Below are positions 528-52,187 of a stretch of DNA of 64,000 nt, piece after piece. The position numbers and the translations under genes were made by a program. The notes under the pieces are model-generated. The model was not told the DNA's origin. It saw nothing but the letters and a program-made list of their open reading frames with translations, and ran no database searches. Source of the DNA: a virus; IMG/VR virus record IMGVR_UViG_3300028591_000203, positions 1 to 64,000 of that record; one strand, given 5' to 3'. Numbering within the stretch: the stretch's first letter is position 1; each line of letters begins with the position of its first letter.

Positions 528-1100
528 TTGTTTAAGATTATGTCTAATAAAAAAGATAAAAAAACATTAAATGATATGATCGAAGAACTGTATATTATGC
601 ATCCAAAAATTTCATATATAGATGGTTATACAAATATGAATAGAACTTGTATTTTTTATTGTAGCGTTTGTGACAGATATTTTAAAAGAACATTTAATAC
701 TATTCTAAATAAAGATAGAGAACCATGCCCTATTTGTAGATCAATCGAAGTAACTATATTTAGTAGAATGTCAAAAGAGACTATTTATAAATATAGAAAA
801 AATAATGAAAAAGCATTTAATGAATATATTTATAAATATAAATTAGCTACTAATCTTAAGTATAAAATGAAATATAAAGATACTCATACCTATATGGATT
901 ATGATAAAAGAGGTAGATTAAAAGATAAACCAGAAAATTATGGAAAATCTTGGACTGATGAAGATTATTCTAAACTTAAACAATATATGGATGAAGGTAT
1001 GCCTATATATAAAATTTCACAATTAATGAAAAGAACAGTTGAAGCAATAAGAACACAACAATACTTTTTAAAATTTTTAGAAAATCGTAATAATAAATAA
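528..1100 (+). CDS. Zn-ribbon (CSVC...CPIC) plus C-terminal Myb/SANT-like HTH protein, paralog of preceding gene
   Basis: CxxC-x21-CxxC motif. C-terminus SWTDEDYSKLKQYMDEGMPIYKISQLMKRTVEAIRTQQY matches the same HTH motif as the 27-521 product. AAGGAG RBS. Confidence 0.35.
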   Translation: MFKIMSNKKDKKTLNDMIEELYIMHPKISYIDGYTNMNRTCIFYCSVCDRYFKRTFNTILNKDREPCPICRSIEVTIFSRMSKETIYKYRKNNEKAFNEYIYKYKLATNLKYKMKYKDTHTYMDYDKRGRLKDKPENYGKSWTDEDYSKLKQYMDEGMPIYKISQLMKRTVEAIRTQQYFLKFLENRNNK

Positions 1101-1106
1101 ATATAA

Positions 1107-1145
1107 ATCCCATAAGACAATATTGTCTTATGGGATTTTTTTTTT
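1107..1145. terminator. intrinsic terminator (bidirectional)
   Basis: Hairpin atcccataagacaat/attgtcttatgggat followed by T10, with an A-run upstream. Confidence 0.7.
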
Positions 1146-2352
1146 AGCCTGAAATATAGTCATCTATATTAATTTTTGCTAAGTGAACAGTACTATCATG
1201 GAAAGCCTTCATTGATTTATTAAGGATAATACCACCAATTTCGGTTGTAAGTAATCCAATATTTTTACTTCCCATTTTATAATAATAGTTTCCTGCACAT
1301 TTATTACAAATCTTATCTCCTTTACAATACATTGGAGATCTCATTTTAACTACCTTGTTAATAAATTTAGATTTAGTATCTTCATTAAGTTCTACAAGCT
1401 GATTTGTTGAAGGATCTTTTACATAACGATACATGAATTTATCAAAATGTTTTTCATCAAGTACGAATTCATAGAATAATTTAGAACCACAATCAGAGCC
1501 TTCATCGTCTAATACAGATGTTTGGAAACTTGTACACATAATCTTATTTTGATAACCACCATCTTGAGTTTCTACTGCTTTACCGAATGTACCTGCAATA
1601 GACATATCACAGTAATATTTAAACTCATCAGGTCTAATACCTTCATCCAAGTTACTTGTAGAAATATAAGTTTCACCTGTAACGAAGTCTTTAACTGCTC
1701 CACGAATAACTGAAGTGCATTTATAGTTATTATCAAAGCTACCACGACAACCACTATTATAAATCTGCATTGCTGGTGTATCTTTAAATGTATCTTTAGC
1801 AATATCTAGTAATTCTTTTTCAATTTTAGCTGTTGCAACAGTATCACCATTTTTAATAGCAACATCATTTTCTTTAAGTAATTCTTCTTTACGTTTAGCA
1901 ATCTTAGGATTAGTCATAACAAAATCAGCACTTAAAGAAGCATTCATAAATTTACCACAATAAAATCCAAACCAATTTATTTTATCCATAAAATCTCTAG
2001 TTTCTTGGGCATCTAACTGATCATTACCAAAATACTTTACAATTTTAGTTAAAAATTTATTAATGTCTTTTCCAAATGCTTTATTTTGATATCCAACTAA
2101 TTCACCAATTTTTGGAGATAATATTAATAAATTAAAAATATATCTTCCTACTGTAGTAGTTTCAGCAGTTTTATTATATAACTTTCCTGCTGGAAGAACA
2201 AAATAATCTTGAGGGCAGTATTTAGGCTTTTTAGATTTTGTATAAGCAAAGTATTCTTCAAGCATTGGTCCAGTAATATCATCAGAAGTAAGAGCTAATA
2301 GTTCTTTTATTTCAGATTCACTTAAAGATCTACCTTGAATTACTTTTTCCAT
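1144..2352 (-). CDS. Multisubunit RNA polymerase beta-prime C-terminal module (bridge helix, Zn motif, trigger loop), copy 1
   Basis: EGIRPDEFKYY...GTFGKAVETQDGGYQNK...SDCGSK aligns to bacterial beta-prime EGL..[26 protein letters not shown]...DCGT. MYCKGDKICNKCAG matches C.TRRGVCAKCYG. GLLTTEIGGIILNKSMKAFH matches the trigger loop G.IAAQSIGEPGTQLTMRTFH. RBS AAGGAAGGTG. Confidence 0.6.
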   Translation of the reverse strand: MEKVIQGRSLSESEIKELLALTSDDITGPMLEEYFAYTKSKKPKYCPQDYFVLPAGKLYNKTAETTTVGRYIFNLLILSPKIGELVGYQNKAFGKDINKFLTKIVKYFGNDQLDAQETRDFMDKINWFGFYCGKFMNASLSADFVMTNPKIAKRKEELLKENDVAIKNGDTVATAKIEKELLDIAKDTFKDTPAMQIYNSGCRGSFDNNYKCTSVIRGAVKDFVTGETYISTSNLDEGIRPDEFKYYCDMSIAGTFGKAVETQDGGYQNKIMCTSFQTSVLDDEGSDCGSKLFYEFVLDEKHFDKFMYRYVKDPSTNQLVELNEDTKSKFINKVVKMRSPMYCKGDKICNKCAGNYYYKMGSKNIGLLTTEIGGIILNKSMKAFHDSTVHLAKINIDDYISG

Positions 2353-2398
2353 ATTAACACCTTCCTTTTAAAAAATATAATAATAAATAGTTGTATCT

Positions 2399-2437
2399 CG
2401 TATTTAATATTGATGTGATTTATATATTATAATTATG
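2399..2437 (+). promoter_or_regulatory. conserved bipartite phage promoter, copy 1 (CGTATTTAA-N17-TATTATAATTATG)
   Basis: Matches the 6-copy motif with an exact 17-nt spacer. Lies immediately upstream of the RBS of the 2453 gene. Confidence 0.55.
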
Positions 2438-2452
2438 AAAGGAGGGATTTTT

Positions 2453-14140: not shown

Positions 14141-14818
14141 ATGAAGGTTATGACTATGAAACAATTCTTACAGAATCCATCTGGAAGCTATTCTGCAAGT
14201 TTTGCAAGAAGAGATCTCATAATTGCTAATCTAGAAGATCGTTTTGCTAAACTTTATCAAAAAAGAAAGCAAGATTTTAAAATAAAAGTTTTTAGAGGAT
14301 CAAATAAAAATGATTTCTTTTTCTATATTCAAGTACCAAGTGAAAAATATGATAAGATTGTATATGATGTAGTAATACAATTTACACCATTAAATATATC
14401 AGCAATGTCCGCTCCAAATATAGATAATTATGGTGTAAAAGTATTTAGTAATAGTTTAAATTTTACATTTACATACTGTTATTGGTATAACCAAGATGGA
14501 ATTGTTATATCTCAGTTAAAAGACAAATTTTCTGGAAAAGCACTTACTGATAAACCAGTAGTTAAAAATAATGAAGGTATTTATGGTTTTGAAAAGTCAG
14601 TTTATTTCGCAATGCTTTTTATTAAATATAATGAACTTAATAAAAAAGCAAATATACTTAAAGTATTGGATAATAATATGACAATTGCTAAATTGAAACC
14701 ATCTATTAAAAGTGCTAATTCAAAGATTATTGAATATAATCTTACTAAAAAAGCAAATGGAGATGAAAATAAAAAAGCTAAGAAAAAAGGATTATCCAAT
14801 CAACCATTTAAGCTTTAA
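14141..14818 (+). CDS. hypothetical protein
   Basis: ORF track. RBS AAAGGAG. TTTAAATTTAAAT motif upstream. Confidence 0.4.
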   Translation: MKVMTMKQFLQNPSGSYSASFARRDLIIANLEDRFAKLYQKRKQDFKIKVFRGSNKNDFFFYIQVPSEKYDKIVYDVVIQFTPLNISAMSAPNIDNYGVKVFSNSLNFTFTYCYWYNQDGIVISQLKDKFSGKALTDKPVVKNNEGIYGFEKSVYFAMLFIKYNELNKKANILKVLDNNMTIAKLKPSIKSANSKIIEYNLTKKANGDENKKAKKKGLSNQPFKL

Positions 14819-14874
14819 AATATATATTATATATATGTCGAAAGACAAACTACGAATTAGGAGGAATATAATTT

Positions 14875-16374
14875 ATGGCTACAAAAGGATTAAGTACAGA
14901 AGAGCTTATCGCAATGTTTGATAGCCCACTCGAACAATATGAAGATGGCACATATGAGTATGCTGTTTTTGATCAAGACAGTCATTGCATTTGTGTCAAA
15001 TTTGATAAAATCTTTGATCGAGAGGATATTAAGCAGCATAATATTTTCAGAATTCAGCATAAAAGATATTATTCTGAAGGAACAGCAAACAGTTCTTCAA
15101 AGCCAATGCTGCCAACTATCTGTAATGATTTGAATTATATTTTCAATCAGAATAATGATTCAATCAGACAGTATGCTGCATTTTCAATGAAGATTGCTTT
15201 GAAGGATAAGAAACCATATCCAGTTGAAAAATTCAAGGATGATATCTATGACTTTATCGACTCTATTAGAGAAGATATTGTTACTTATGTTGAAGAGAAT
15301 TATGAACTTAATTTGAGTGAGTCAAATGACAAAATTAATACTGACCTGCAGGTAACAGATGATATGAATAAAGTATTTATTGAATCTGCTATTGGTATGA
15401 GAGCTGTTATTCCAATTGTCTGCGATTATACTAGTAATGAAAAAATCGATAAGATCTTTTATGAGATCTTTAGAAATATTATGATTAAATTCGCAGAAAT
15501 CGATAAAGATAATAACAATCCTCTAACTAAACTCAGATCAATTGTTAGATCAAGAGTTGAACAGACTAAGTACGCTAATAAGAAAATCTGGAGATTTATT
15601 AGTAACTATACTACAGATATGACTATTATTTGTGAACAGTTCAATGTTTCTCTTATTGAAAGTATTATTCCTAAGCTGGATATTAACAGATCTGCAATCA
15701 AGTATATTGATGTAGTATTAAGAAAGAAACTTGAATTTGCTTTTACATTTAACTTTTCATATGAATATCGCCCACTAAGAAATCTTGAGAACGATGATGA
15801 TACTGATGAAAGAGATCGTTTAAATGAAACTATTTTCACCAGTAGAAAAAATGAAGCTGCATTAGTTCTTAATAAACTAACAATTAAGCAGCATATCGGA
15901 CAGTATATTTCAGATAATGATATTACTGATTCTGATATTAATGAATTTAAAAAAAAGAATCTGAAGAATAAAAATCTTAATAATATTCAGAACTATTTTC
16001 TGTTTATTACATTTGGAAAGATTTTTGAAGTAAATATTGCAACAGAAGCAGATAGAGTAATTCTTCTCTATGAGCTTATTAATGACTTAAAAGAACAGGG
16101 ATTTTCTGAAATTCCAAAGCTTTTATCAAGTACTGTTGAAAATCAGGTTGATATCAGAAATAAAGTTCCTGCAAAGAGACTTAAATCTCAGGATGGTTTC
16201 TTAAAGATTGTTAAGAAGTATGAGCCTGTTGTTGATATTATCGAAAATGATAATTTTATCGTAAAGATGACAAGTTTTAAAAACTACAATTATTTTGATG
16301 AAAATAACAATCCAGTTACTTTCAATCCAAATAATTTTGAAAGAGAAATAATTAGTTTTATCCTGTCTCTTTAA
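14875..16374 (+). CDS. hypothetical protein (499 aa)
   Basis: ORF track. RBS AGGAGGAAT. No motif recognised. Confidence 0.4.
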   Translation: MATKGLSTEELIAMFDSPLEQYEDGTYEYAVFDQDSHCICVKFDKIFDREDIKQHNIFRIQHKRYYSEGTANSSSKPMLPTICNDLNYIFNQNNDSIRQYAAFSMKIALKDKKPYPVEKFKDDIYDFIDSIREDIVTYVEENYELNLSESNDKINTDLQVTDDMNKVFIESAIGMRAVIPIVCDYTSNEKIDKIFYEIFRNIMIKFAEIDKDNNNPLTKLRSIVRSRVEQTKYANKKIWRFISNYTTDMTIICEQFNVSLIESIIPKLDINRSAIKYIDVVLRKKLEFAFTFNFSYEYRPLRNLENDDDTDERDRLNETIFTSRKNEAALVLNKLTIKQHIGQYISDNDITDSDINEFKKKNLKNKNLNNIQNYFLFITFGKIFEVNIATEADRVILLYELINDLKEQGFSEIPKLLSSTVENQVDIRNKVPAKRLKSQDGFLKIVKKYEPVVDIIENDNFIVKMTSFKNYNYFDENNNPVTFNPNNFEREIISFILSL

Positions 16375-22497: not shown

Positions 22498-24594
22498 ATG
22501 AGTGCAAATTTCAGAACATATGTAAACGAAATGCAGTCTCACATTGACGACATGGTGAAGGACGGTTTTCTCTATAGTCTGGATATTGAGCCAGATTATG
22601 TTTGGGAAAAGTATCTGGATAATTACCCTTCTGGAAGTAATGACATCTTCAGAAAGAGACGAGAGTTCGATTGCTCTTGTTGTCGAAGCTTCGTAAAGAA
22701 GTTTGGCAATGTTGTATCTCTTAAGGGAGGTAAGTATACTACAATTTGGGATTTTGAGGCTGAAGAGCCTTTCAATTCTGTTAACAAGCTCATGTCAGAT
22801 ATGCTTAAGGGTCTGATGATTAAAGACATCTATGTTCCCGACAAGAGACAGACTCTTGTAGGAACAGTTTATACCGTTGAGCTGTTGGAAGATTCCTCTA
22901 CCAGAAGATGGAATCATTTCAACTACAACACTGACAAATATCTTATTAAGTTCAATGATAAGTTCAGAGTAATGCCGTCTGAACTTAAGTCTGAAGTTAC
23001 AGGTCGTATCAGAGATGATAAGGCTGTATTCAAGAGATCTCTTGATGAAATCTCTATGGATGCTCTTCAGACAGTTCTTGAACTGATCGCTGCAGGTAGT
23101 ATCTATCGTGGCGATGAGTGGAAGAATAACCTTCAGGTTTTCAAGACTATTAAGAAGGATTATGATTCTCTCACTAGCGAATATGACAAAGACCTGTTCG
23201 CTTGGGAGCAGGCTGCAAATGTTTCCCCTGCGGTAGTACGAATTAAGAACCATTCAATGGGTAAGCTCCTTACAGATATTACTGATGGGATTGATCTTGA
23301 CCGTGCTGTAAAGGCATGGGAAGATATGGTGGCTGGTCCTAACTATAAGAGACCAAAGCCTCTCTTCACAAAGAAGATGCTGGAGGATGCTAAAAATAAG
23401 CTTGCAGAAATGAACTATCTCGATAGTCTTAAGAGAAGATATGCAGTTCTTGACGATATCTCTGTAAACGATATTCTTTTCTGTGACAGAAATGCTGCAA
23501 AGAGAATTAAGGGTACAGGTGACATTTTCGATGAAATGGCTTCTTCTATTCCAGTGAATCCTAAGAGTTTCTCTAAGGTAGAGGAAGTAAATATTGATAC
23601 ATTCGTATCAAGTATCCTTCCAACTGCAAAGTCTATTGAATTATTCCTCGACAATAGACTTACAAAGAATCTTGTAAGTCTTATTGCACCTGAGATTCCT
23701 GGTAGTAAGTCTATGTTCAAGTGGAATAATCCTTTCTCTTGGGCTTACACTGGCAACATTACAGATTCCAATATTAAGGAAAATGTAAAGAATGCTGGTG
23801 GTAACGTGACTGGAGATCTGAGATTCAGCATTCAGTGGAATGATGAGAATCAGTGGGATCAGGATGATCTCGATGCACATTGCATTGAGAGATACAGTGG
23901 AAGAAAGAAATATGAGATTTATTATGGCAATAGATCAAACAGTTCTCCTAATGGTGGTAGACTTGATGTAGATATCATTCATCCTACTAAGGGTGTTGCT
24001 GCTGTAGAGAACATTTTCTATAGCACTAAAGATACTATCAAGGACGGAACTACATTCCAGTTCTTCGTACATCAGTTTACTAACAGAGGAGGAAAGACTG
24101 GATTCAAGGCTGAGATTGAATTCAATGGTCAGCTTTATCAGTTCGAATATAGAGGAAATATTCCTGATGGAGAAAACATTCAGGTTGCTGAAGTAACTTA
24201 TAAGAATGGAGAGTTCTCTATCAAGGAAAAGCTTCCTTCTACTATGAGTTCTAAGGATCTGTGGGGTCTTACCTCTATGCAGTTCCATCCTGTTACAGTT
24301 ATTATGAATTCTCCTAACTTCTGGGAAGGTTCTTCAATGACTGGTAACAAGCATTGGTTCTTCATGCTTGATGGAATGGTTAACGAGGAGAATCCTAATG
24401 GATTTTATAACGAATTCCTTGTTCCTGAACTTGATAAGTATCGTCATGTTACTGAAGCACTTGGTGAAAAGCTGAGTGTTGTAAGTGCAGACGATCAGCT
24501 GAGTGGTGTTGGATTCTCTAGCACTATCAGAAATAATGTCATCCTTAAGGTGACAACAAACAACACAACAAGAACTCTTAAGGTGACTTTCTAA
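22498..24594 (+). CDS. large hypothetical protein (698 aa; CSCC cluster; beta-rich C-terminus), GC-rich island gene
   Basis: ORF track. RBS AGGAGGA. No catalytic motif recognised. Confidence 0.45.
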   Translation: MSANFRTYVNEMQSHIDDMVKDGFLYSLDIEPDYVWEKYLDNYPSGSNDIFRKRREFDCSCCRSFVKKFGNVVSLKGGKYTTIWDFEAEEPFNSVNKLMSDMLKGLMIKDIYVPDKRQTLVGTVYTVELLEDSSTRRWNHFNYNTDKYLIKFNDKFRVMPSELKSEVTGRIRDDKAVFKRSLDEISMDALQTVLELIAAGSIYRGDEWKNNLQVFKTIKKDYDSLTSEYDKDLFAWEQAANVSPAVVRIKNHSMGKLLTDITDGIDLDRAVKAWEDMVAGPNYKRPKPLFTKKMLEDAKNKLAEMNYLDSLKRRYAVLDDISVNDILFCDRNAAKRIKGTGDIFDEMASSIPVNPKSFSKVEEVNIDTFVSSILPTAKSIELFLDNRLTKNLVSLIAPEIPGSKSMFKWNNPFSWAYTGNITDSNIKENVKNAGGNVTGDLRFSIQWNDENQWDQDDLDAHCIERYSGRKKYEIYYGNRSNSSPNGGRLDVDIIHPTKGVAAVENIFYSTKDTIKDGTTFQFFVHQFTNRGGKTGFKAEIEFNGQLYQFEYRGNIPDGENIQVAEVTYKNGEFSIKEKLPSTMSSKDLWGLTSMQFHPVTVIMNSPNFWEGSSMTGNKHWFFMLDGMVNEENPNGFYNEFLVPELDKYRHVTEALGEKLSVVSADDQLSGVGFSSTIRNNVILKVTTNNTTRTLKVTF

Positions 24595-40050: not shown

Positions 40051-40134
40051 TAATTATATATTATATAAATGATATTTAAATTTAAATTTAAATATCAATA
40101 ATTATTTATTAACATTATAGGAGGATAACTTAAT

Positions 40135-42066
40135 ATGGCTAAGAAAAAATCTACTGAAAAAGTTCAAACATTGAATATTCAGGAATTACTTTCTAGTACT
40201 GAAGAAGTTGCTGGAGTAAGCTTATATGAAACAACTATTAAAAGCTTAATCCTGTATCTTACCGAAGACATTAATAGAAGACATGAAAAGTGTCTAGTAA
40301 GTTTCTCTGGTGAAGAAGCTAGAGAATTAAATCTCGGTCAGTATTTGACTTACATTATTATTCTTGAACCATTCTATGTTTATGACGAAGAAATTGATCT
40401 TACAGTTTTACCAGATGTAAGTAATATCAATGATGTAGAAAAATATTTTGACTGGTGTGTTTATCACTTTGGTATCGAAGAGAGTTATGAAAATATCGGT
40501 GATGTGCTTGTTGACATTATCGATAATCTTAATGAAATTACTTGTAATATGACTCAGAAATTCGGTCCAACATTTGATTTACACACATTTATTAAAATCG
40601 CAGAAAGAAATCCAAAGTTTGCTAAACTTTTGTATGAACCAGATAGCTTTATAAAAGAAAGAGGAGGAGAAGTTACTCCTGAAGAGATTGTTGATTATAC
40701 ACATAAGGTAATTGATGAAGTTCAGCAGTGTATTATCGATGATCCAGATAATAACTTTAAAAACTTTATTACTTCTGGTGCAGGTGTAAACTCAAAGCAG
40801 TTAGGTCAGGTATTAGGATATATCGGTCTTAAGCCAGATCTTAAAGAAAAGATTATTCCAAAGTCAATCGATACTAATTTCTGTATGGGTCTAAGAAATG
40901 TTACTGACTTCTATATCAATGCAGTTGGTTGTCTTAAGGCTCTTATTACAGTTAAGATTCAGACAAAGAATTCTGGCTATCTAACAAGAAAGCTTCAGAT
41001 TCTTCTTAGTGATGAATATCTTTCAGATGTAGAAGATTGTGGTACAAAGCATCTTATGCCATTTACTATTGAAAATAAGAAGCATCTTCTTCATTTAAAT
41101 AATCTTTATTATTCAATGAAGGAAAATGGAAAGAAGCTTACTAAAATTAATAGTAAGAAAGATACTGATCTTATTGGTAAAACAGTATATCTCAGAACAC
41201 CTATTACATGTGCTTGTAAGAATGGTATTTGTAAGAAGTGTTATGGAGATCTTTGGAAGATTAATAAGGATATGAATGTTGGTATTATTGCGTCACTAAT
41301 TATTACTAACATGATTACTCAGACTAATCTTTCAGTTAAGCATCTTCTTCAGGCAGTTATTCTTATTACACTTTGTCCTGAACTTCTTAAGTATTTCACT
41401 ATTGAAATTGATAAGCTTCATCTTAAGGATGAATATATCGATAAGGTAAGCTTGGCATTTAGCAGAGATATTAGTTGCAATGAAAATTCTGAATCTCCTG
41501 AATATGAAACAAGTGTCATTACAATTATTGATGGAGATAATGTAATTGATATTGAAAATAATATTCTCTTTAATCTAAATCCAGAAATCAATGAAATTCT
41601 TTTCTCTGATCTTGATACAGATCTTGATAAGTATATTGTAAAGGGTAAGAAATTAAAGAACTTTGACTATATCTTTAATTATTCAGTTGAAAATAATTCT
41701 CTTTCTGGACCAATGCTTAAACTTAAGGAAATTATTGAAAAGAACGAATTTGTTAAGTCTCATAATGCATTTGAACTTTTCAATAAGATTGTTGAAATTC
41801 TGTTAGAGAGTAATTCTAGAACAGACTATGTTCATATTGCTCTTATGATTAAGAATATGATGAAGGTCGATGAAGGAAGAGAAGCCTTCGCAGGAAGTAC
41901 TTTCCCAGAATATACTTTATATTCTGTTCCAGATGCAATTCACTATTGTTCTAAGAGTATTTCTAAACCATTACTTTTCGAAAGAATTAAGGATCAGTTA
42001 CTTCTTGATAAGTATGGTACTCTTGAAAAGCACGGATATTCAAACTATGATGTACTTCTGAAGTAA
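40135..42066 (+). CDS. multisubunit RNA polymerase beta-prime C-terminal module, copy 2
   Basis: NSGYLTRKLQILLSDEYLSDVEDCGTKH matches [16 protein letters not shown]...DCGT. RTPITCACKNGICKKCYGDL matches the C..GVCAKCYG zinc motif. GIIASLIITNMITQTNLSVKHLLQ matches the trigger loop. Confidence 0.7.
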   Translation: MAKKKSTEKVQTLNIQELLSSTEEVAGVSLYETTIKSLILYLTEDINRRHEKCLVSFSGEEARELNLGQYLTYIIILEPFYVYDEEIDLTVLPDVSNINDVEKYFDWCVYHFGIEESYENIGDVLVDIIDNLNEITCNMTQKFGPTFDLHTFIKIAERNPKFAKLLYEPDSFIKERGGEVTPEEIVDYTHKVIDEVQQCIIDDPDNNFKNFITSGAGVNSKQLGQVLGYIGLKPDLKEKIIPKSIDTNFCMGLRNVTDFYINAVGCLKALITVKIQTKNSGYLTRKLQILLSDEYLSDVEDCGTKHLMPFTIENKKHLLHLNNLYYSMKENGKKLTKINSKKDTDLIGKTVYLRTPITCACKNGICKKCYGDLWKINKDMNVGIIASLIITNMITQTNLSVKHLLQAVILITLCPELLKYFTIEIDKLHLKDEYIDKVSLAFSRDISCNENSESPEYETSVITIIDGDNVIDIENNILFNLNPEINEILFSDLDTDLDKYIVKGKKLKNFDYIFNYSVENNSLSGPMLKLKEIIEKNEFVKSHNAFELFNKIVEILLESNSRTDYVHIALMIKNMMKVDEGREAFAGSTFPEYTLYSVPDAIHYCSKSISKPLLFERIKDQLLLDKYGTLEKHGYSNYDVLLK

Positions 42067-52106: not shown

Positions 52107-52187
52107 AAATTAATTCCTCCTAAAAAGTTTAAAATAATATATGGTAAAGATTCACTTTACCATATATATAATATAAGTTTATTTTTA

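Follow-up and report, generated by a model that had tools for sequence, protein, structure and literature searches.

A probable β′M gene and its product

The stretch of viral DNA analysed here (IMG/VR record IMGVR_UViG_3300028591_000203, positions 1 to 64,000; hereafter the window) is metagenomic, has a GC content of ~28%, and showed no close relative when compared with known phages by megablast. On its minus strand, at 1144-2352, lies an open reading frame (ORF) for a protein of 402 amino acids (aa). This ORF is very probably the gene for β′M, the central one of the three polypeptides replacing bacterial β′ in the virion RNA polymerase (vRNAP) of an uncultivated jumbo phage related to AR9 and PBS1. 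The protein matched PHROG 2962 end to end, with an expectation value (E) of 2.5e-76 over profile positions 69-432 of 433. Its top annotated relative was Bacillus phage AR9 gp264, to which it is 44% identical over residues 1-400 (tblastn E 2e-101) and whose GenBank note reads 'virion RNAP subunit ... TIGR02386'. A family profile (A1), built from 31 sequences, matched β′ chains only when run against the PDB (best E 7e-16); its positions 55-388 aligned with ~580-947 of bacterial β′, the alignment ending at the trigger-loop ...RTFH. When the single sequence was searched against the PDB, the best match was cyanobacterial RpoC2 (8syi_Z), which aligned with residues 179-386. Foldseek, run with the model of the protein, returned first chain D of the AR9 non-virion RNA polymerase (nvRNAP), that is gp154, its β′C subunit (E 8e-13), and then bacterial, plastid and cyanobacterial β′; E values for the AR9 nvRNAP β′C and bacterial β′ ranged from 1e-9 to 8e-13. 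The product is thus the module of a β′-like subunit that holds the bridge helix, the zinc site and trigger helix 1, and a known vRNAP subunit is its ortholog. Public labels for β′M homologs (PHROG 2962/3015; AR9 g264; Fusobacterium phage JD-Fnp1/4) often read 'RNA polymerase beta subunit', 'subunit alpha' or 'hypothetical protein'.

The motifs of the protein (Table 1) are strongly conserved among its 31 homologs. Invariant residues include T66, G69 and N74 of TTVGRYIFN, T262, G266 and K270 of the bridge helix, and all four cysteines of the candidate zinc module; S200 and G201 of SGCRGS are nearly so. The cysteines align to the DCGT ... C-x6-C-x2-C segment of β′ and are taken here to correspond to the E. 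coli β′ zinc site Cys814/888/895/898, and the module presumably binds metal. Close to the C-terminus, GIILNKSMKAFH (residues 374-385) aligned to ...QLTMRTFH of bacterial β′ in the alignments made with hidden Markov models (HMMs), M381 pairing with E. coli β′ M932. The next conserved residues, K382, F384 and H385, presumably equivalent to R933, F935 and H936 of the E. coli trigger loop, are kept in at least 90% of homologs. The AlphaFold2 model, with a mean predicted local distance difference test score (pLDDT) of 82.8, contains both the bridge helix and the terminal trigger-loop helix. Absent from the 402-aa chain are the DFDGD Mg site of the double-psi β-barrel, the second trigger helix and the C-terminal clamp/jaw regions, all of which are expected to reside on separate subunits. 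A sequence-only reading of this locus had picked out the ORF and named its bridge-helix, DCG, zinc and trigger-loop motifs; the ORF listing confirms the former, and all of the motifs align with the matching bacterial β′ elements. Its estimate that the chain stops about 20 residues beyond the trigger-loop helix is borne out by a measured 17 residues after His385, and the placement in the β′ family, for which profile and structural comparison had been proposed as a check, was supported by both.

The signals flanking the gene also bear on its short length. A Shine-Dalgarno sequence precedes the ATG, and directly 3′ of the TAA stop lies a hairpin with a 15-pair stem, which a terminator scan picked up on both strands (2 sites in total, against 0.4 expected). 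Beyond the stop, the next ORFs (528-1100 and 27-521) run in the opposite direction. Because of this ribosome-binding site, the stop and hairpin, and the opposite-strand neighbours, the short length is not that of a frameshifted gene, a contig end or an exon boundary. An Rfam scan of the window found no family at the gathering threshold, so no group I intron was detectable, and a tRNA scan of the whole 64 kb found zero tRNA genes.

Table 1. Coordinates of the β′M gene, its motifs and other features in the 64-kb window
Feature	Position	Strand	Remarks
Probable β′M gene of the vRNAP	1144..2352	-	402 aa + TAA stop; from the ORF listing
Shine-Dalgarno AAGGAAGGTG	2358..2367	-	5 nt ahead of the β′M ATG; strong; read from the sequence
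TTVGRYIFN, residues 66-74	2131..2157	-	Start of alignable β′ homology; pairs with bacterial TTVGRvlFN/TTlGRlIFN
SGCRGS, residues 200-205	1738..1755	-	Counterpart of bacterial β′ SGARGS; HMM alignments
Bridge helix, residues 241-276	1525..1632	-	Single 36-residue helix in the AlphaFold2 model
Bridge-helix core GTFGKAVETQDGGYQNK, residues 254-270	1543-1593	-	Aligned to GARKGL(A/V)DTALRTADSGYLTRR
Four-cysteine candidate zinc module	1291..1497	-	C288 in SDCGS (286-290) and C343, C349, C352 in CKGDKICNKCAG (343-354)
First trigger-loop helix, residues 365-385	1198..1260	-	AlphaFold2 helix; ends M381-K382-A383-F384-H385
C-terminal tail, 17 residues past His385	1147..1197	-	pLDDT ~52-57; chain break relative to unsplit β′
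Bidirectional terminator-like hairpin	1105..1138	both	Separates the β′M gene from convergent ORF 528-1100
nvRNAP β′C paralog, 643 aa	40135..42066	+	AR9 gp154 ortholog; spans β′M + β′C equivalents
AR9 gp226 ortholog	14875..16374	+	Fifth, promoter-specificity nvRNAP subunit
AR9-type early sites	2418, 3713, 6877, 14818, 21128, 22006, 29190, 40052, 43675, 53229, 62723, 63190	+	
AR9-type early site	52159-52180	-	Sole minus-strand site
Early promoter before the nvRNAP β′C gene	40052..40073	+	Matrix score 21.6; 62 nt upstream
Early promoter before the gp226 ortholog	14818..14839	+	Exact AAATATATATTAT; matrix score 18.9; 36 nt upstream
Early-promoter-like site	2418..2439	+	Matrix score 15.2; directed away from the β′M gene, to the divergent ORF at 2435/2463

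Two RNA polymerases and their promoters

The window contains a second β′-like gene, at 40135-42066, whose product matched PHROG 3015 (E 1.7e-63) and AR9 gp154 (tblastn E 7e-83) and passed the Pfam cut-off for Rpb1_5 (30.5 vs 28.5). The best local alignment between this product and the β′M protein gave 24% identity over 139 aa, and hhalign related the β′M family to the nvRNAP β′C family with a probability of 99.3% (E 4e-20). PHROG 3015 matched residues 264-368 only of the β′M protein (E 1.3e-13), and the latter stops at about column 400 of the 633 columns of the nvRNAP family; it is not a ~630-aa nvRNAP β′C chain. A further nvRNAP gene encodes an ortholog of AR9 gp226 (PHROG 25005 E 2.4e-76; tblastn E 8e-66; 31% identity); as in AR9, its neighbours on either side are orthologs of gp227 and of the primase gp225. 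gp226 is a sigma-like nvRNAP subunit that reads promoters with deoxyuridine in the template strand, and the presence of its ortholog hints that the DNA of this phage may contain uracil. About 20 further AR9 orthologs, including SbcC, a DNA polymerase and a helicase, were found in the window with identities of 25-55% and in partly conserved order. Judged by its sequence, the source is a new metagenomic AR9/PBS1-like jumbo phage with both a vRNAP and an nvRNAP.

To analyze promoters, we derived an AR9 early-promoter consensus, AAATATATATTAT, from 33 annotated AR9 sites. Allowing at most one mismatch, the consensus occurred at 13 sites in the window vs 2.8 expected, and a position-weight-matrix (PWM) scan that included the downstream TGA box (accepted scores >=14) also gave 13 sites, vs ~1 in shuffles. 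All but one of these sites are 13-114 nt upstream of a same-strand ORF, and 12 of the 13 are on the plus strand. Since 13 sites were found where ~1-3 would arise by chance, the promoter specificity of the vRNAP looks conserved between AR9 and this phage. Two of the sites precede the nvRNAP β′C gene and the gp226 ortholog (Table 1); in AR9, too, an early promoter is annotated 55 nt ahead of g154, and the gp226 arrangement is also the same. No early promoter leads into the β′M gene, the best minus-strand PWM score in 2353-2600 being 8.3. A scan for sigma-70-type promoters was not above shuffles (11 vs 12.4). In AR9, nvRNAP genes are expressed early or continuously and vRNAP genes, including that of gp264, late (PMC5312081), and the promoter pattern in the window fits this scheme, if only indirectly. 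Since the second gene is the gp154 ortholog and early promoters are found before the nvRNAP genes and none before the β′M gene, the proposal of two different multisubunit RNA polymerases with split β′, as in AR9 and phiKZ, holds: the 402-aa protein is the ortholog of gp264 (vRNAP) and the second copy that of gp154 (nvRNAP). The two genes had been called C-terminal β′ paralogs; their paralogy stands, whereas the 402-aa protein is a middle rather than a C-terminal piece.

Position of the β′ break and the missing C-terminus

A division of β′ into three pieces has already been published for several phages. Thomas et al. (2016) described the 431-aa gp42 of SPN3US as β′M and the 240-aa gp244 as the missing β′C, the missing part corresponding to ~1260-1524 of T. 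thermophilus β′ (PMC5105663). Lavysh et al. (2017) reported that the β′ of the AR9 vRNAP consists of gp145, gp264 and gp125, with gp264 being expressed late and found in virions (PMC5312081). N-, Mid- and C-β′ were drawn as the standard vRNAP layout in a 2020 review (PMC7598289), and a five-polypeptide vRNAP core is given there and in a 2026 review (PMC13282480).

We surveyed 1.84 billion proteins with A1, obtaining 1,161 representative clusters at E<=1e-30, and read the end points in the best 150. In 148 of these, the β′M representative ends no more than ~20 residues from the profile end. About ten of the best 150 are fusions of N-β′ and β′M of ~930 aa (P0279, P0300, P0315, P0318, P0343, P0358, P0364, P0371 and P0393; ~920-960 aa), and these still end 17-18 residues past the trigger-loop His, indicating that the break after the trigger loop is more conserved than that between N-β′ and β′M. 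Combined with the published three-way β′, these end points show that the window's copy is the standard form and not an extra split: the early stop after the trigger-loop helix is the standard N/M/C layout of vRNAP β′ described since 2016-2017. The suggestion of a split going beyond that of known examples therefore fails, as AR9 gp264, at 401 aa, aligns over the same residues 1-400. The protein adds a new and divergent member to a family already known, and the gene itself brings nothing new conceptually. β′M homologs of ~270-280 aa proved to be interrupted copies; P0051, for instance, is a 283-aa first part followed by an HNH_3/NUMOD1 homing endonuclease gene (L010 4001-5618, Logan SRR8436538), and several Staphylococcus phage matches (H16-H18) are in two pieces. 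The copy in the window is uninterrupted. Other homologs (P0288, P0348, P0362, P0375, P0377, P0396, P0397 and P0401) carry N-terminal extensions of 140-400 aa, that of P0288 having no obvious relation to β′; these may represent an additional domain, part of an N-β′ or an artefact of gene calling.

AR9 gp125, a 248-aa member of PHROG 2926, is annotated only as 'virion protein'; PHROG 2926 itself is labelled only 'virion structural protein'. The gp125 family occurs as a separate ~240-aa gene on many contigs >200 kb, and separate β′M and β′C genes occur together on related contigs of 212,288 and 274,943 bp. The exact 402-aa protein is also encoded on contig k141_1222239 of ENA ERZ27256846, and a 78%-identical relative on the 265-kb contig Ga0484773_000006 (JGI). 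The metagenome β′C scan did not return the 265-kb contig of the closest relative, so that co-occurrence is shown for more distant relatives only. Direct homology tests were weak: the gp125 profile found nothing relevant among PDB sequences, and hhalign of the gp125 family against the nvRNAP β′C family gave a probability of 31% (E 5e-4). The matched columns, 405-607, are collinear with and abut columns 45-400, which the β′M family covers.

Decisive support came from natural fusions. P0355 (N+M+C, 1167 aa) has DGDYDGD at 465, upstream of β′M at 526-915, and a gp125-type module at 925-1166, and P0392 (M+C, 686 aa) has β′M at 35-436 and a gp125-type module at 454-685; at library size, the gp125 profile matched them with E values of 2.6e-40 and 4.3e-36, respectively. 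In both proteins a tail like that of the window's β′M runs for ~10-20 residues, after which the gp125-type module begins. This arrangement confirms, at the level of sequence, that the gp125/gp244 family continues β′M collinearly and is hence the missing β′ C-terminus. By the same alignments, the chain break of the vRNAP is inside the trigger loop, shortly past the catalytic His. In the AR9 nvRNAP structure, a trigger-loop insertion domain occupies gp154 residues 400-508 (PMC9209446); taken with the weak hhalign match, this suggests that the vRNAP break lies where trigger helix 1 meets the insertion domain. The gp125 model has a confident N-terminal β-domain (residues 1-110) followed by a helix at 117-128, which would then be the likely equivalents of the insertion domain and of trigger helix 2.

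Alternative explanations

The notion of a lineage-specific, previously unseen cut in β′, one more than in AR9 or phiKZ, drew on the fact that the ORF ends 17 residues past the trigger-loop His while its paralog in the window continues for >220 residues. Characterised phages, however, have orthologs of equal length (AR9 gp264, together with the published SPN3US gp42/gp244 and AR9 gp145/gp264/gp125 sets), which refutes it, as does the shared end point of 148 of the best 150 relatives; we consider its probability negligible. A truncated gene, either exon 1 of a β′M+C gene interrupted by an intron or homing endonuclease or a decaying pseudogene copy of nvRNAP β′C, would have precedents in the interrupted relatives described above (P0051 and the two-piece Staphylococcus phage matches) and in the intron-rich RNA polymerase genes of AR9. 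Yet the protein covers the whole family profile and conserves the catalytic residues, a terminator follows its stop, the ORFs beyond it run the other way, and the window has neither an Rfam group I intron nor a gp125-type sequence, the best match of that HMM in the window and flanks having an E of 0.16 vs 1e-69 for positive controls. A frameshifted β′C-like reading frame was likewise not found near the gene, and truncation is extremely unlikely.

It is also very unlikely that the protein belongs to the nvRNAP, or is a piece interchangeable between both enzymes. Both paralogs do have a common core fold, and the packaging of the 402-aa protein is argued by analogy. By contrast, it is 44% identical to the vRNAP subunit gp264, whereas its alignment with the nvRNAP-type paralog gave 24% over 139 aa; a complete nvRNAP-type β′C is already encoded at 40135-42066, the nvRNAP genes and not this one have early promoters ahead of them, and the AR9 nvRNAP structure holds gp154, not gp264 (PMC9209446). 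Several observations do weigh against assignment to the vRNAP. Pfam gave only a sub-threshold match to the ORF (Rpb1_4, 12.3 vs a cut-off of 24.8 bits), so that membership is set by PHROGs, the custom profile and the fold. Genes for N-β′, β′C, βN and βC of the vRNAP were absent from the window and the L011 flank, and tblastn and HMM searches of the window and of flanks L011 and L007 returned no gene of the gp125, gp145, gp189, gp078, gp270, gp105 or gp089 type; a complete vRNAP set is accordingly assumed from relatives. The AR9 late motif AACA-N6-TR was not enriched in the window (93 vs 115 expected) and did not occur upstream of the β′M gene, so no late promoter was assigned; virion packaging and late expression of the protein would instead follow from its orthology and from the lack of an early promoter.

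Proposed role of β′M

As a β′M subunit, the protein would supply the funnel/secondary-channel region, the bridge helix, the four-cysteine zinc module and trigger helix 1 with the catalytic Met-Lys-x-Phe-His. It would be unable to work alone, as the Mg-binding DFDGD barrel would be on a separate N-β′ and the part from the trigger-loop His to the β′ C-terminus on a separate ~240-aa β′C of the AR9 gp125/SPN3US gp244 family; two β pieces would complete the vRNAP core with N-β′, β′M and β′C. By analogy with AR9, the gene would be transcribed late by the nvRNAP, and, as in AR9, SPN3US and phiKZ, the product may be packaged and enter the cell along with the phage DNA; virions of AR9 and SPN3US are known to contain the orthologs. 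Once assembled, the vRNAP would fire early promoters of the AAATATATATTAT type, including those before the nvRNAP genes of the window.

A less probable extension of this model is that the break after trigger helix 1 is a selected feature of vRNAPs, the trigger loop being assembled in trans, rather than an accident of gene fission. The idea, which we regard as unlikely, stems from the retention of the break in 148 of 150 representatives, even in the ~10 lineages where the N/M break has healed. With the remainder of the trigger loop (helix 2 and any insertion domain) on a separate small subunit, assembly of the catalytic loop in trans could act as a switch that holds the late-made vRNAP inactive until co-assembly or injection; the break might also help the enzyme to unfold and pass down the tail.

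Other genes in the window

The adjacent small ORFs 27-521 and 528-1100 (both on the plus strand), convergent with the β′M gene, have in common a C-terminal module of 51 residues (47% identity, E 2e-12; W-T-x-E-D-Y...MxRT..AIR) that appears by eye to be helix-turn-helix (HTH)/SANT-like. One of the pair has a Lys-rich repeat at its N-terminus and the other a zinc-finger-like CxxC...CxxC; neither had a Pfam match or an AR9 homolog. ORF 22498-24594 on the plus strand lies in the most GC-rich part of the window (0.39 vs ~0.28). Its 698-aa product matched PHROG 1735 ('unknown function') with an E of 2e-228, and AR9 has no homolog of it at E<1e-4; the gene may encode a conserved structural protein or may have been acquired.

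Implications and comparison with known systems

This analysis gives the window a firm annotation as part of an AR9/PBS1-like jumbo phage with virion and non-virion multisubunit RNA polymerases, and its early-promoter motif is essentially that of AR9 despite an identity of only 44% between the two β′M proteins. The N+M+C and M+C fusions provide sequence-level proof that gp125/gp244 is the β′ C-terminus, for which the published HHpred support was only E = 0.05. They also place the split in the trigger loop, and conservation is far stronger for this break than for that between N-β′ and β′M. The fused proteins could be handy constructs for the still-missing structure and biochemistry of a vRNAP.

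AR9 gp264, to which the PBS1 homolog is identical, resembles the protein described here in length (401 vs 402 aa), in being collinear over residues 1-400 and in its end point. In both phages the adjacent divergent intergenic region has an early promoter directed away from the β′M gene. Apart from their sequence divergence, the two loci differ in that the neighbourhood is rearranged: a Hef-like homing endonuclease follows g264 in AR9, whereas here two small zinc-finger/HTH-like ORFs converge on the gene. SPN3US gp42/gp244 and phiKZ-like vRNAPs have PHROG 2962 in common with it and follow the same three-piece logic, although Erwinia and Salmonella phage matches are only ~28% identical and SPN3US gp42 is ~30 aa longer. 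AR9 gp154 and the product of 40135-42066 (PDB 7S00, 7S01, 7UM0) share its fold and its motifs between TTVGR and the trigger-loop His; unlike β′M, such nvRNAP β′C proteins continue in one chain through the insertion domain to the β′ C-terminus, and their genes have an early promoter. The metagenomic fused vRNAP β′ proteins (P0355, P0392 and the ~ten N+M proteins such as P0279), which match the β′M profile with E values of 1e-103 to 1e-141, hold neighbouring modules in one chain, while the protein in the window is the common stand-alone form.

The split β′ of cyanobacteria and plastids (RpoC1/RpoC2, β′/β″) is also divided after the catalytic barrel, and the phage and cyanobacterial split sites are often described as coinciding. 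In our alignments, A1 position 112 pairs with RpoC2 residue 28 (8gzh_Z, 8syi_Z), so that the phage β′M starts ~85 residues before RpoC2 and its TTVGR motif would fall in RpoC1. By this comparison, the phage N/M split is near, but not identical to, the cyanobacterial one. Cyanobacteria further differ from the phage in keeping the trigger loop, the insertion SI3 and the C-terminus in one chain, and SI3, a large insertion, is located at the tip of the trigger loop, where the phage enzyme is broken.

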